33,292 nt of DNA. It comes from Promethearchaeota archaeon. Its GTDB lineage: Archaea; Asgardarchaeota; Lokiarchaeia; Sigyniarchaeales; SOKP01. A program made the position numbers and the translations under genes. Below the pieces are notes generated by a model. It was not told where the DNA came from. It worked only from the letters and a program-made list of their open reading frames with translations, and searched no databases. This document shows positions 93 through 31,836 of the stretch, piece after piece (position 1 is the stretch's first letter; every line of letters starts with the position of its first letter). The stretch is taken from the NCBI GenBank assembly GCA_019058295.1, contig JAHPZI010000005.1, positions 1 through 33,292 on the forward strand, written 5' to 3'.

Positions 93-959
93 TTAGAGAT
101 TTTCTATTGCTGTACCTCGTCGAACACGATGATTCTTCATCCCAATATCTTCAGAACTAATTCCCATTGCTAAAGCAATTAATTCCGTTATATAAAGAAC
201 AGGAATATTATATTCTGCATCGAATTTCTTCGATAGATCTCTCTGGGATGTATCAAAGCGTTGAAAGCAAGCAGGACAGTTCACAACAATCACGTCAGCA
301 CCTGCTTTTTTAACAGAATCTAATTTCTTCTTTAGAATTGCATCGCCATGATCCGGAAACGGACCAGCCACAGCATTTCCACAACATAATGCTAATTCGT
401 CATAATCAACTACATTAGCACCGGTAGCAGCAGCAATCTCTTTCAAATTTACTGGATGTAATGGATCATCAGATTCCATCCATTCTACAGGACGCATATA
501 ATGGCAGCCAGGATGGCAAGCTACTTTTAGATTGCTCATTTGTTTTGTAACAGCACCTTTAATAGCCCCTAAATTTTCCTTAAGAACGTCAACAAAATGC
601 CTTACATCAATTGAACCTTTATATTCCTTTCCAATTTTAGCTAATTCTTTATTAATAGCCTCTTTTTTATTGGAATCATGTTTTAATTGATGTTGAACAC
701 CTCGTAAGGTGTTTGCGCAACCATTACATAAGGAAATAATAGGTTTGCCTTCTGCTTCAGCTAAACATAAGTTTTGGGCGCCCATCGCAAGCCAAGCGGT
801 ATTATCAAAGCATTTCACACCAGTTGGATCAGGACAACACGAAAAAGGAGCTTGTGATGTCTGGACTCCAATTTTATCAAGAACCTTTCTGGATGCTGCT
901 TCTATAAAAGGAATTCTGTTTCCAATTACACAACCCTCAAACATTTTATATTCTGTCAT
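93..959 (-). CDS. hdrB: CoB-CoM heterodisulfide reductase subunit B (two CCG domains)
   Basis: FEGC..., FSCCPDP, CNGC, HPGCH, CCG and NCPACF motifs typical of HdrB; directly downstream of hdrC. Confidence 0.93.
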   Translation of the reverse strand: MTEYKMFEGCVIGNRIPFIEAASRKVLDKIGVQTSQAPFSCCPDPTGVKCFDNTAWLAMGAQNLCLAEAEGKPIISLCNGCANTLRGVQHQLKHDSNKKEAINKELAKIGKEYKGSIDVRHFVDVLKENLGAIKGAVTKQMSNLKVACHPGCHYMRPVEWMESDDPLHPVNLKEIAAATGANVVDYDELALCCGNAVAGPFPDHGDAILKKKLDSVKKAGADVIVVNCPACFQRFDTSQRDLSKKFDAEYNIPVLYITELIALAMGISSEDIGMKNHRVRRGTAIENL

Positions 960-974
960 TTTTTTACCCTCCGT

Positions 975-1508
975 TTATAACTTTTTATCAGCACCTATAT
1001 TTTTTAATAAAGTCTGCACTTCATTAACATTTGGTGCAGCTACGGCTGGTAAGCCCATTTGTTCTCGTCTTCTCTCGATCGCGGGTTGTGATGGAATTGC
1101 TTTACCATTCTCAAAAACAGTTTTTGCTTGAGCTACGACATTATCAGGTGCAAGTCCCGCACCAGAAGTTACGTTTTTAGCTAAACCAATAATTTCAGTA
1201 ACTTCAATCGCCTGTGGACAAACTGTATCACATGTATCGCATACAGTGCAACCCCAAGGAATAAGAGCTGATTTTGAGCCTGCTAAGGCCATCACAATAT
1301 CTTTATATCCTAGAAGTGTCCCTAATACAATCAATCTTGGATCAAACCAATTAGTTACTTCATGGTAAAAGGGATTTGCAACTGATGCGACAGGACAATT
1401 ATCAGTGCATCGATTACATTGATAACAGTATTTTATCTTATCAGATCCAATGTGTACATCCATAATTAATTTCCTAAATTCAAAATCTATACCCAATGGT
1501 AATGTCAT
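975..1508 (-). CDS. hdrC: Heterodisulfide reductase subunit C (2x[4Fe-4S])
   Basis: CYQCNRCTDNCP and WGCTVCDTCDTVCP motifs; C-terminal RRREQMGLP typical of HdrC. Confidence 0.92.
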   Translation of the reverse strand: MTLPLGIDFEFRKLIMDVHIGSDKIKYCYQCNRCTDNCPVASVANPFYHEVTNWFDPRLIVLGTLLGYKDIVMALAGSKSALIPWGCTVCDTCDTVCPQAIEVTEIIGLAKNVTSGAGLAPDNVVAQAKTVFENGKAIPSQPAIERRREQMGLPAVAAPNVNEVQTLLKNIGADKKL

Positions 1509-1557: not shown

Positions 1558-1630
1558 GTTGGTTTTAACCCATGCAAGGGCAGTCATATCCAATCTATAA
1601 TTTTTATTGGATATTTCATCCTAAACCAAC
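1558..1630 (-). promoter_or_regulatory. Eukaryote-like (Lokiarchaeota-type) SECIS element of vhuU
   Basis: Minus strand reads GTTGGTTT-AGG-ATGA-A-ATATCCAAT-AAAAATTATAG-ATTGGATAT-GA-CTG...AAACCAAC: AUGA/GA core, perfect 9-bp upper stem, A-rich apical loop and an 8-bp outer helix; about 80 nt downstream of the in-frame UGA. Confidence 0.8.
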
Positions 1631-1765
1631 GTGTAATTCACGAGAGTAAATTTCTTTACCATCCTCATCAACTACAGTGATGTGAGCGGCACACGATAGT
1701 CAGCAATCAAAACAGCGGACAATCATTTCTAAGACATTTACTACTCCTTCTGGTATATCACTCAT
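1616..1765 (-). CDS. vhuU: F420-non-reducing [NiFeSe] hydrogenase subunit U, selenoprotein (49 aa; UGA=Sec at 1702-1700); absent from the ORF track
   Basis: Manual translation MSDIPEGVVNVLEMIVRCFDC-U-LSCAAHITVVDEDGKEIYSRELHVGLG*; supplies the L2 motif D-x-(C/U)-x-x-C-x-x-H missing from the upstream large subunit; SECIS follows. Confidence 0.92.
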
Positions 1766-1802: not shown

Positions 1803-3110
1803 TTATTTTATCCATGGATCTGGTAATTTTAATCCATCTAACGCCTTATCTTCAAATACTTGTTTAGCCACATGCATTAATGTCTTTTCAATTCCTGCGA
1901 TATTATGATTTGTCGCAACTAAAAGGTTACACTTTTTACAAATACCATCAGCGTCTGACCAGATATTATATAACAGAAGTCCTCGTGGAGCTTCAGTTAT
2001 CCCTACTCCATTTCCTTCTCTAGGTTGAACATCAAGTGTTTTACAGTCAGGATTTACAATATCTGGATCTTTTAGAAGAGTTGCAATCATTTCAATTGCC
2101 TCAACAGTTTCAATTATTCGTGCCCAATGATAAGCAAAAGTATGGTGTATTACGTTAGTTCCAACTTTTTCCCTCATTGCTTTTAATGCTTCATCTGCGA
2201 GAGGTGTTGCCATTTTATCAGCACAATTTATCATTGCTAAGGTGTTTGCTCTATAGATTCCTTCGGGATATCCAGCAGGTTTATAATACATATGAGTTGC
2301 ATATGAGTGCTCTGGAATATGCTCTCCTAATGCTTCTAAATATCTCTGTGGAGCATAATCGGTTTTTTCTCCCGTTGGAGAAACAATTCGAATATCACCT
2401 TCATAGATATCATGTACTCCATTATTTGTCATTCCAACATAATATGTTGGGACAACACCTACATTAGCAACAACATCCCAATAATCATCTATAACTTTTA
2501 GCGCAATATCTACAGTCTTCTTAGTCATTTCAATTTGATCGTCAATTACTTTAAGGAATTTATCGCGAACGTCTTCATCTAAAGCCTTTTTCATACCGCC
2601 AACGATTGCGGCGATCGGGTGAACAGCCTTACCACCAACAGCAGCACATAGTCTTTGACCGAAATCCATCATTTTTAATGCCATTGCTCCAACATCTGGC
2701 ATCTTATTAATTACATGTACTACATTTCTTAATGCAGGATCTGCCATAGGCCCTAATAAGAAATCTGGTGCTGTTAAAGCGTAGAAGTGAATTAAATGCG
2801 AACTGTATTGTTTAGCATTAATTAAAAGTTGTCTTAATTTTCTTGCAGGTTCAGGAATCTGAACACCCCAAGCATCTTCCACTGCTTTTGTTGGAGTTAA
2901 ATGATGTGGTATTGGACAAATTCCGCAGATTCTTGGAGTAATTCTTGGAATGTGTTCACAATATCGTCCTTCAACAAATTTTTCAAAGAATCTTGTCGAT
3001 TGGATATTAAATTGTACATCTTGAACTTTTCCATCATCTCCAAGAACGACTCTCATTCCACCATGCCCCTCTAATCGAGTTATGGGCTCTACTTCTATTT
3101 CTTTCACCAT
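1803..3110 (-). CDS. vhuA: F420-non-reducing group 3c hydrogenase large subunit (VhuA/MvhA type), lacking the C-terminal L2 motif
   Basis: EPITRLEGHG N-terminus, L1 motif PRICGICPIPH, EAPRG motif; ends ...LPDPWIK with no DPCxxCxxH. Confidence 0.92.
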   Translation of the reverse strand: MVKEIEVEPITRLEGHGGMRVVLGDDGKVQDVQFNIQSTRFFEKFVEGRYCEHIPRITPRICGICPIPHHLTPTKAVEDAWGVQIPEPARKLRQLLINAKQYSSHLIHFYALTAPDFLLGPMADPALRNVVHVINKMPDVGAMALKMMDFGQRLCAAVGGKAVHPIAAIVGGMKKALDEDVRDKFLKVIDDQIEMTKKTVDIALKVIDDYWDVVANVGVVPTYYVGMTNNGVHDIYEGDIRIVSPTGEKTDYAPQRYLEALGEHIPEHSYATHMYYKPAGYPEGIYRANTLAMINCADKMATPLADEALKAMREKVGTNVIHHTFAYHWARIIETVEAIEMIATLLKDPDIVNPDCKTLDVQPREGNGVGITEAPRGLLLYNIWSDADGICKKCNLLVATNHNIAGIEKTLMHVAKQVFEDKALDGLKLPDPWIK

Positions 3111-29629: not shown

Positions 29630-30724
29630 TTATTCACTATAATATTTATAATAAATACTACAAGTTCCTTCCATGGAAACCATACAAGGACCGACTGGAT
29701 TGAGAGGGGTGCAAATTTTTCTAAATAATTTACACTCGTTTGGAGATAATTTTCCGGTCATTATCAAATGACACGAGCATCCAGGATGTATATCCGTTGA
29801 TTTTTCTATTTTTATATCAAATTTTTTGTCTGCATCATATTTTTCATATTGGTCTTTAATGGCCAAACCTCCATCGAGAATTCTACCAATTCCTCTCCAT
29901 GGAGAAGAAACAGACTCAAAAACTTCAGAAATAATTCTTTGAGCGACAATATTTCCTTCAGGCTTAACGACTCTTGAATATTCATTAAGTGTTTCGAATT
30001 TTTTATTTTTAATTTGTTTAAGTAGCATAAGAATTGCGAGTAGAACATCATTAGGTTCAAAGCCAGTAATAACATTTGGAACGTGATAGGCATTAGAAAA
30101 TAATTTGTAAGGTTTTATACCTATAATCGTTGACACATGACCAGGTGATATAAAACCATCTATACTTAATTGATCGATGCTCATTAATAATTCTAAAGCC
30201 GCTGGAATGAGTTTATGCGCACATATTACAGAAAAATTTGAAGGAGGATTGCTTTTTATCTCATACCCAGTTAATGGAACAGTGGTTTCGAATCCAATAG
30301 CAAAAAATATTATTTCTTTGTTAGGATTATCCTTTGCAATTTTAGCAGCATCGTTTGGACCATAAACTATTCGCACATCAGCGCCTTTAGCTTTAAGTTC
30401 CGCTAAAGAGAGGTTTGTAGCTGGAACTCGAATCATATCACCAAAAGTAGTAATTATAACGTCGTCCCGTTTGCCTAATTCGATTGCTTTATCGATATCT
30501 GCTGCTGGACAAACACATACAGGACAACCAGGACCAGAAATAATTTCAATTTCTTTTGGGATAAGTGATCTTAATCCATATTTTGAGATTGTATGCTCGT
30601 GTGTACCACAAACATGCATTATTTTTACCGGCTTATTAATAGCTTTAATATTTTTATTAATAGAACTAATTATCTTATCCGTAAATTGTTTGCTTCTTAA
30701 AATTTTAGATCCTGGAATTTCCAT
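29630..30724 (-). CDS. hypD: Hydrogenase maturation protein HypD
   Basis: MHVCGTHE, GPGCPVC, GFETT, PGHVS, GPCMVSMEGTC; likely start ATG 30724 (ORF track 30790). Confidence 0.95.
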   Translation of the reverse strand: MEIPGSKILRSKQFTDKIISSINKNIKAINKPVKIMHVCGTHEHTISKYGLRSLIPKEIEIISGPGCPVCVCPAADIDKAIELGKRDDVIITTFGDMIRVPATNLSLAELKAKGADVRIVYGPNDAAKIAKDNPNKEIIFFAIGFETTVPLTGYEIKSNPPSNFSVICAHKLIPAALELLMSIDQLSIDGFISPGHVSTIIGIKPYKLFSNAYHVPNVITGFEPNDVLLAILMLLKQIKNKKFETLNEYSRVVKPEGNIVAQRIISEVFESVSSPWRGIGRILDGGLAIKDQYEKYDADKKFDIKIEKSTDIHPGCSCHLIMTGKLSPNECKLFRKICTPLNPVGPCMVSMEGTCSIYYKYYSE

Positions 30725-30783
30725 GTTATTAATATACAGTTTTACTATTTTTTCATTATATTGATTTAAACTTAAAATATAAA

Positions 30784-31836
30784 TTAACAAATTCTAGGTA
30801 TAGGCTCGCCTAGGGGCATATCTACGAATCTTGTGCCACCAACTAAGGTTTTTAATAACACTTTTTTGGGATTTTCAGCTTTTACCTCTCCAATAATTTC
30901 AGCTTCCTTTCCAATTTGAGTAGATTTAATTTTCTTTAGAACAATATCCGCTTGAGCTGGATCAACAGACAAGAGAGCTTTTCCTTCACAGGCTATATTA
31001 AATGGATCTAATCCTAGCATATCGCATATAGCATTTACTTGTTTTTTAATTGGTATTTTTTCTTCCTCTAAATAAATACTTACATTAGATTTTGACGCCC
31101 AATCGTTTAGAGCTCCAGCAATTCCTCCCCTTGTTGGGTCTTTCATTGCATGAATATAATTAGATTTAATTTCAGATTTAATAGATTCATTAATTTCAAG
31201 TAACAAATTTAAATCAGATTCTAAATCAGTGGAAATATTTAAACCTTCACGACTTGCCATTAAGGCAGTTCCATGATCTCCGATAGTCCCTGTAATTATT
31301 ATTTTATCCCCTACTTTTAAACCATTATCTACGATTTTAATTTCCTTATCCTTAATTCCAATTCCAGATGTGGCAATAATTATCTCATTTAAACTTCCAC
31401 TAGGCATAATTTTAGTATCGCCAGCAATTATCGCAATATTCGCTTCTTTTGCTTTTTCATTAAATGATTTTATAATTTTCTCTAAAACTTCGAACTTAAA
31501 ACCCTCTTCAATAATAATCGTAGAAGTTAATGCCAAAGGCTTTGCACCCATCATCAATAAATCATTTACTGTACCGCAAATACTTAATGTTCCCAAATTA
31601 CCTCCCGGAAAGAATAAAGGATATACTGTATGTCCATCAGCAGTTATAACAATTTCTTTATCGTAATTTTCTAAAGGGATGGTTGCACCATCATCTAATT
31701 CTTCCACCCCAATACCTTTATTTACATTTTTCAGCGTGATATCTTTTGTAATGAAATTTATTAATTCTTCTTGTAAAACTCCACCAGCACCATGTGCTAA
31801 ACGGATGATTTTTGAACTCTCTTTTTTCTCACTCAT
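30784..31836 (-). CDS. hypE: Hydrogenase maturation carbamoyl dehydratase HypE
   Basis: LAHGAGG, PLFFPGG, GTVNDL, AGDTK, DPTRGG, C-terminal PRIC. Confidence 0.95.
   Translation of the reverse strand: MSEKKESSKIIRLAHGAGGVLQEELINFITKDITLKNVNKGIGVEELDDGATIPLENYDKEIVITADGHTVYPLFFPGGNLGTLSICGTVNDLLMMGAKPLALTSTIIIEEGFKFEVLEKIIKSFNEKAKEANIAIIAGDTKIMPSGSLNEIIIATSGIGIKDKEIKIVDNGLKVGDKIIITGTIGDHGTALMASREGLNISTDLESDLNLLLEINESIKSEIKSNYIHAMKDPTRGGIAGALNDWASKSNVSIYLEEEKIPIKKQVNAICDMLGLDPFNIACEGKALLSVDPAQADIVLKKIKSTQIGKEAEIIGEVKAENPKKVLLKTLVGGTRFVDMPLGEPIPRIC

Follow-up and report, generated by a model that had tools for sequence, protein, structure and literature searches.

A UGA-interrupted vhuU gene, very probably a selenoprotein gene, completes the split large subunit of a Lokiarchaeial hydrogenase

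We report that a short reading frame interrupted by UGA completes the split large subunit of a hydrogenase encoded on a 33,292-nt stretch of archaeal DNA (the window). This frame, vhuU, is very probably a real selenoprotein gene of a Lokiarchaeial (Promethearchaeia) cytoplasmic [NiFeSe] hydrogenase of the Mvh/Vhu type, the large subunit of which is encoded in two cistrons. An earlier note on this DNA had proposed that the UGA is recoded as selenocysteine (Sec), and this interpretation is supported here by alignment, by conservation downstream of the UGA, by the Sec-decoding machinery of the genome and by a lokiSECIS element. The features of the locus and of its neighbourhood are compiled in Table 1.

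Table 1 Location of the vhuU gene, its lokiSECIS element and neighbouring genes in the window
Feature	Position	Strand	Evidence or remark
hdrB-like protein, CCG domains	93..959	-	PF02754 E 1.6e-25, PF22196
hdrC-like 4Fe-4S dicluster protein	975..1508	-	Fer4 families; directly downstream of vhuU, same orientation
lokiSECIS, three-way junction	1558..1630	-	MFE, covariation, RNAalifold, cross-family architecture
lokiSECIS basal helix	1630-1623 with 1565-1558	-	5′ arm is codons Val46-Gly47-Leu48
lokiSECIS AUGA core	1619-1616	-	core UGA is the vhuU stop codon; extra A at 1615
lokiSECIS upper stem, 9 bp	1614-1606 with 1594-1586	-	AUAUCCAAU / AUUGGAUAU
lokiSECIS apical loop, 11 nt, A-rich, ending in G	1605-1595	-	AAAAAUUAUAG
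lokiSECIS GA	1585-1584	-	
lokiSECIS side hairpin, GCCC/GGGU, GC-rich, after the 3′ GA	1581-1578 with 1571-1568	-	
vhuU	1616..1765	-	49 sense codons and UGA stop; translation, alignments, conservation, coding-type substitutions
vhuU Sec22 codon	1702-1700	-	
vhuU Cys25 codon	1693-1691	-	
vhuU His28 codon	1684-1682	-	
vhuU C-terminal extension	1681-1619	-	21 residues after His28
vhuA, [NiFe] hydrogenase large subunit, 435 aa	1803..3110	-	PF00374 E 9e-29
vhuG, hydrogenase small subunit, 440 aa	3115..4437	-	PF01058; 5odc_E E 8.7e-57; 9sfi_I E 4.2e-52
hypD	29630-30790	-	PF01924 E 1.6e-146; [NiFe] centre maturation gene, on the contig of the hydrogenase
AIR-synthase-family gene, probably hypE	30784-31836	-	PF00586, PF02769; adjoins hypD

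On the minus strand vhuU begins with ATG at 1765-1763, 37 nt past the vhuA stop, and reads MSDIPEGVVNVLEMIVRCFDC-U-LSCAAHITVVDEDGKEIYSRELHVGLG up to the terminal TGA at 1618-1616, with the motif D-C-U-L-S-C-A-A-H around the internal TGA. This in-frame TGA breaks the frame under table 11, and the standard ORF listing holds no ORF at the site. The description in the earlier note, a 49-codon minus-strand ORF broken by TGA at 1702-1700 and absent from the ORF track, was exact, also in its coordinates, and the observation of a UGA-interrupted vhuU that completes a split hydrogenase is confirmed. A Pfam search returned no family for the 51-aa vhuU peptide.

The large-subunit gene vhuA encodes the N-terminal metal motif RICGICPIPH (R60-I-C62-G-I-C65-P-I-P-H69), whereas a search of its 435 residues for the C-terminal Ni motif DPCxxCxxH found none. 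Its best match among solved structures is the split VhuA 9sfi_g (418 aa; E 1.8e-120), residues 4-419 aligning to 3-417, and of MvhA 5odc_F (473 aa) only residues 3-416 are matched. In the 9sfi structure, the VhuA chain 9sfi_g is accompanied by a separate VhuU chain of 27 aa, 9sfi_M. The vhuU peptide aligns to residues 425-452 of MvhA 5odc_F ('...RAYDPCLSCATHI' / 'MEMLIRAYDPCLSCATHI'). VhuA thus stops near MvhA residue ~417 and VhuU aligns to 425-452, and therefore the two together make up one large subunit. In alignments to the C-termini of MvhA, FrhA and other large subunits the UGA falls on the first Cys of DPCxxCxxH, and in the alignment to 9sfi_M (LRAYDPXYSCAAHM) the UGA codon stands opposite X, the Sec. 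Side by side, the motifs read DCULSCAAH in VhuU, DPCLSCATH in MvhA and DPXYSCAAH in 9sfi_M, with Pro changed to Cys in the window. The earlier note had described a large subunit at 1803-3110 that has the L1 motif and lacks the C-terminal Ni motif, a UGA exactly at the Ni-ligand position and a split as in Methanococcales Vhu. All of this stands: residues R60-H69 are present and DPCxxCxxH is absent, the alignments to MvhA C-termini and 9sfi_M place the UGA at the ligand position, and VhuA ends where the split 9sfi_g ends.

The operon has the order vhuG, vhuA, vhuU, hdrC, hdrB, all on the minus strand. VhuG has 440 aa, compared with 288-308 aa in solved MvhG/VhuG, and is matched in two stretches; an insertion of roughly 140 residues is therefore implied. 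A fusion of MvhG with MvhD was considered for this length and is not supported, the solved-structure matches being only small-subunit chains (MvhG/VhuG and relatives) with no MvhD chain among them. Farther along the window, three radical-SAM genes and a gene for a lipoate-protein ligase surround hypD and the probable hypE. Outside the window, the same genome (G000) carries a gene for a HycI-family maturation protease at G000:C26:59592-59915. In a related locus, L094 (3859-5506), the gene order is vhuA-hdrC-hdrB-vhuU, vhuU and its SECIS lying ~1.5 kb from vhuA. The same distance of ~1.5 kb separates the two genes in L118, L137, L138, L140, L152, L156 and L159, which probably share the gene order of L094.

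Conservation across relatives argues for translation beyond the UGA. A vhuU ORF with in-frame TGA was found in 54/61 related genomes of the class and, among 80 further loci fetched with VhuA, in 71. The 80 loci come from MAGs mostly labelled Promethearchaeota or Promethearchaeia (= Lokiarchaeia); the regular expression for vhuU had no match in the other 9 of these 80 loci, several of which are too short to contain vhuU. The Sec codon is TGA in all of the 84 distinct orthologous sequences. With the window's own sequence as reference, the codon differences of these 84 sequences are synonymous in 621 cases and non-synonymous in 288 after the UGA; before it, the figures are 369 and 136, respectively. 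Ala+4, Thr+8 and Arg+20, counted from the UGA, are invariant over up to four synonymous codons. The earlier note had made conservation downstream of the UGA in orthologues a point on which its reading depended, and the coding-type evolution of this segment (621 versus 288) indicates, on comparative grounds, that the vhuU peptide is translated past the UGA.

Several features of the sequence around the Sec codon were noted. The codon directly after the UGA (1699-1697, minus strand) is CUA in 82 of the 84 sequences, Leu having six codons, and this bias points to a constraint on the UGA-C context. The DPC/U motif otherwise has a conserved Pro at the place of Cys21 (1705-1703, minus strand), and Cys18 (1714-1712, minus strand) stands where Ala is usual, giving RCFDCU versus RAYDPU. 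All 84 distinct family-level sequences carry DCU, and the other families of the class have DCU, DPU, DNU or DFU. One relative carries a Cys-type vhuU (L069, G039:C117:2690-3420; DCC LSCAAH) without a recognisable SECIS downstream, together with a Sec-type copy (DFU) on another contig of its genome (L070, G039:C15), a pair that recalls the Sec and Cys isoenzyme pairs of Methanococcus.

The 3′ end of vhuU carries a SECIS element that begins 81 nt downstream of the Sec codon. According to Mariotti et al. 2016, a lokiSECIS consists, in the description of their main text, of AUGA, a 9-bp stem, an 11-nt loop with AAAAA at its start and AG at its end, and then GA or AA (PMC4989117). The window has AUGA-A-AUAUCCAAU-AAAAAUUAUAG-AUUGGAUAU-GA and agrees with this description except for the extra A after AUGA. 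An 81-nt region folds with an MFE of -21.5 kcal/mol (z -3.72), and none of 200 shuffles folds as well. Rfam at gathering thresholds returned no SECIS and no other family in the window, which is to be expected because the published tools, according to the same main text, also miss lokiSECIS (PMC4989117). A loose pattern of AUGA, stem and A-rich loop has 59 matches in this 31% GC genome, mostly by chance. Four of them look genuine, with a 9-bp stem and a AAAAAUNUUAG loop, and they follow vhuU, selD (G000:C9:24499), vhuD (C18:25485), a gene with two in-frame UGA codons, and a further UGA-containing ORF (C8:18037). The element after vhuD (plus strand) has the stem sequence of the vhuU SECIS, AUAUCCAAU/AUUGGAUAU. 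The one on C8 (~18037, minus strand) is lokiSECIS-like, with a 9-bp stem and the loop AAAAAUGUUAG, and stands after an ORF reading ...DPGC-U-U-EQV... with two adjacent in-frame UGA codons.

Beyond core, stem and loop, the element extends into a three-way junction with a basal helix and a side hairpin. In a MAFFT alignment of 30 family members, 92.9% of the cells are paired and 10 of the 21 pairs show changes on both sides, in the upper stem 7 of 9. In 500 shuffles none of the five measures was equalled even once, and the pairing collapses to 27-49% when the partners are slid by one to three columns. RNAalifold independently gives the basal helix, the SECIS hairpin and the side hairpin. The third position of the Gly47 codon, which is GGU in 42 and GGC in 42 of the 84 distinct sequences, covaries with a 3′ UTR position occupied by A or G (U-A 16, C-G 8). 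Other families of the class keep the three-way-junction architecture with quite different sequences; in these families a U-run follows the SECIS structure, where the window instead has an A-rich spacer into hdrC.

We tentatively put forward a reading that goes further and that we regard as rather doubtful, namely that the functional SECIS of Lokiarchaeia VhuU is this compact three-way junction and not the published hairpin and, separately, that the lineage-wide DCU, a vicinal Cys-Sec, could give the Ni site a selenenyl-sulfide chemistry unseen in known [NiFeSe] enzymes. If the part on the junction were true, the basal helix would be formed by the last sense codons (Val-Gly-Leu) and the 3′ UTR, the kink-turn core would hold the terminator UGA, and the GC-rich side hairpin after the 3′ GA would be akin to the GC-rich stem of methanogen SECIS elements. 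Each ribosome that terminates would then have to melt the very signal that had let it pass the upstream UGA, and the invariant VGLG at the C terminus of the protein would owe its constraint to the RNA and not to the protein.

The earlier note had pointed to Sec machinery elsewhere in the genome as a check on the recoding. In the genome's own assembly (79% complete, 30 contigs) this was borne out for tRNA-Sec, SepSecS, a SelB-like factor and SelD, and not for PSTK. The tRNA-Sec, with anticodon UCA, lies at C30:102581-102703 (+) and matches RF01852 with 44.2 bits (E 6.6e-8), as encoded just under the Rfam threshold of 47 bits. Its true 5′ end (GGCCCUUGA...) is at C30:102581, and its D arm contains a 30-nt intron, the 5′ exon ending at about GGCCCUUGACGGUCGGA (...CGGUCGGA) and the 3′ exon starting at about GUGGUCUCUGACG. 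ARAGORN found no tRNA in the window and none at the tRNA-Sec locus as encoded; after excision of the 30-nt intron in silico it called tRNA-SeC(tca) from C30:102581. The low Rfam score and the ARAGORN miss are thus due to the D-arm intron. Several congeners share this 5′ arrangement and have in addition a T-loop intron, which is absent from the genome studied here and from G014; a T-loop intron of tRNA-Sec is described in the main text of Mariotti et al. (PMC4989117).

The SepSecS ORF (386 bits, C30:102920-104080) starts ~30 nt 3′ of the tRNA-Sec gene. The SelB-like factor (C30:98363-99403) lies ~3 kb away on the opposite strand and scores 240 bits against the bacterial-model cut-off of 242. 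SelD is encoded on C9 (188.6 bits) with one in-frame TGA. Searches of the 79%-complete assembly for PSTK with PF08433, TIGR03574 and tblastn with a congener's PSTK found none. PSTK was detected at ~140-156 bits in 5/5 relatives searched, three of them of the same genus, and the missing gene is read as a gap in the incomplete assembly, not as an absence.

Were the UGA a true stop, VhuA would be a truncated relic and the similarity downstream of it the decaying remnant of a full-length mvhA, hence a pseudogene. Table 11 indeed breaks the frame, so that ORF calling lists nothing at vhuU, and TGA is a normal stop in this genome, where it terminates 196 of 1390 open frames of at least 300 codons. 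However, across the class 84 distinct sequences retain both the TGA and the 27 codons that follow it, with about twice as many synonymous as non-synonymous differences; a separate ATG start for vhuU, a 37-nt spacer and a SECIS are all conserved, and solved Vhu structures have the identical split. Moreover, the position of vhuU after hdrCB, 1.5 kb from vhuA, in some relatives is unlike that of a decaying mvhA remnant. Judged from sequence comparison, the conservation pattern effectively refutes the pseudogene, which we consider highly improbable. That faulty assembly or sequencing turned a TGT or TGC into the TGA at 1702-1700 has nothing in its favour except that the source is a metagenome-assembled genome, and its probability is close to nil: the codon is identical in 84/84 distinct sequences from independent assemblies, and the site is covered by contigs from four public runs belonging to four studies, with no difference at 1700-1702 among the best-supported differences listed. 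These contigs, taken from Logan, derive from two DNA and two RNA-library runs and cover vhuA-vhuU; one of those from an RNA library, 597 nt long, extends over 1569-2164 at ~94% identity, contigs of this kind being unable to show transcription, strand or ends. The conserved TGA, the coding-type substitutions and the use of TGA as an ordinary stop therefore rule out that the gene is a pseudogene, that the codon is a sequencing error or that it is reassigned throughout the genome.

It is also improbable, if somewhat less so, that the UGA is read through as Cys or Trp by near-cognate decoding, which would yield a [NiFe] instead of a [NiFeSe] enzyme, at least when selenium is scarce. UGA-C is a leaky stop context in other systems, and the CUA found after the UGA in 82 of 84 sequences creates this context; the PSTK gene was not found in the assembly, and one relative (L069) carries the Cys-type copy DCC. 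Against such read-through, the genome has a dedicated and partly clustered tRNA-Sec, SepSecS, SelB-like factor and SelD, the same type of SECIS follows its UGA-containing selD and vhuD genes, and PSTK is present in all five relatives searched, including three congeners. Were Cys an adequate substitute, one would expect some of the 84 sequences to carry TGT or TGC, but none has either.

With Sec at this position, VhuA (435 aa) would supply the N-terminal metal ligands Cys62 and Cys65, and VhuU the C-terminal pair, Sec22 and Cys25. We infer from the sequence that Sec is inserted at UGA 1702-1700, which would be read by tRNA-Sec(UCA), delivered by the SelB/EFSec-like factor and directed by the eukaryote-like lokiSECIS. 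The terminator UGA inside the AUGA core of the SECIS would end translation and would escape recoding because it is too close to the SECIS; Mariotti et al. argue in their main text that a stop UGA in the SECIS core is too close to be recoded (PMC4989117). Once HypD, HypE and the other maturation proteins had inserted the metal, the 21 residues after His28 would probably be cut off by a HycI-family endopeptidase, leaving a VhuU subunit of 28 residues. Cleavage at this site is suggested by homology: Sorgenfrei et al. in 1993 are said to have found the VhuU of Methanococcus voltae processed after the His. The 21-residue extension also resembles the C-terminal extension of FrhA in the deposited chain 3zfs_A ('HVMVVDDEDKSVIKNEM'). 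The hydrogenase, encoded with hdrC and hdrB, would have HdrA and VhuD as partners, two further selenoproteins whose genes lie elsewhere in the genome; in which direction it runs in the cell is likewise a matter of inference.

Without re-annotation of vhuU, the hydrogenase of this MAG seems to have only half an active site and would be taken as broken in metabolic reconstructions. The D-arm intron hides the tRNA-Sec gene from standard tools. This intron, the basal helix, the side hairpin and the DCU motif are details that bear on how a kink-turn SECIS arose from the archaeal type.

VhuU of Methanococcales is the small selenoprotein subunit of the F420-non-reducing hydrogenase Vhu (PMC2933860). 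The system described here resembles it in that the large subunit is split at the same place, with a separate cistron encoding D-x-U-x-x-C-x-x-H. It differs in having DCU and the extra Cys18 (RCFD) where the methanogen protein has DPU and RAYD, and in the 21 residues after the His, the deposited methanogen chain ending one residue after it. Furthermore, its host is not a methanogen, and its SECIS is of the eukaryote-like kink-turn type whereas the euryarchaeal elements are of the GAA_A type, as stated in the main text of Huang et al. 2024 (PMC11227280). The MvhA subunit of MvhAGD-HdrABC (5odc_F, 473 aa) belongs to the same hydrogenase family and has the same Hdr association. In contrast to the split subunit, MvhA is a single polypeptide with Cys at the position of Sec22.

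The SECIS of the Desulfovibrionaceae [NiFeSe] hydrogenases is bacterial and lies inside the coding sequence. In these periplasmic enzymes (PDB 2wpn, 5jsh) the C-terminal Ni motif has Sec in the place of its first Cys, as in VhuU, which aligns weakly to 5jsu_B. They are unsplit, however, and belong to a different and distant hydrogenase group, to which VhuA aligns over residues 5-176 only.

The closest known counterpart is the Lokiarchaeota VhuU (VhuU.1) that Mariotti et al. described together with the lokiSECIS (Mol Biol Evol 33:2441; PMC4989117), and the vhuU of the window is its orthologue as that protein is presented in the main text. Both are peptides of ~50 aa with one Sec from the same lineage (Promethearchaeota/Lokiarchaeia), and both SECIS elements have a 9-bp stem, an 11-nt AAAAA...AG loop and an AUGA that doubles as the UGA stop of the gene (PMC4989117). 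In the published VhuU.1 element AA follows the stem and, in the published lokiSECIS, AUGA directly precedes it, whereas the genus of the window has GA and the extra A (PMC4989117). The statement of the earlier note that Lokiarchaeota are reported to encode Sec-VhuU is accordingly backed by the literature, including the SECIS and its overlap with the stop codon (PMC4989117), and in the catalogue of Huang et al. the family, listed under FrhA, MvhA or VhuU, occurs in 68.3% of the Asgard archaea that use Sec (PMC11227280). A Sec-VhuU with a eukaryote-like SECIS the AUGA of which is the stop is thus already known for Lokiarchaeia from the main texts of these studies (PMC4989117, PMC11227280), which model core, upper stem and loop only and do not mention a basal helix or a side hairpin. 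The three-way junction may be a small addition to the published lokiSECIS as it stands in these main texts. Together with its covariation-backed basal helix in the coding sequence and its side hairpin, the DCU motif and the D-arm intron of the tRNA-Sec, it constitutes a set of refinements and not a new kind of system.
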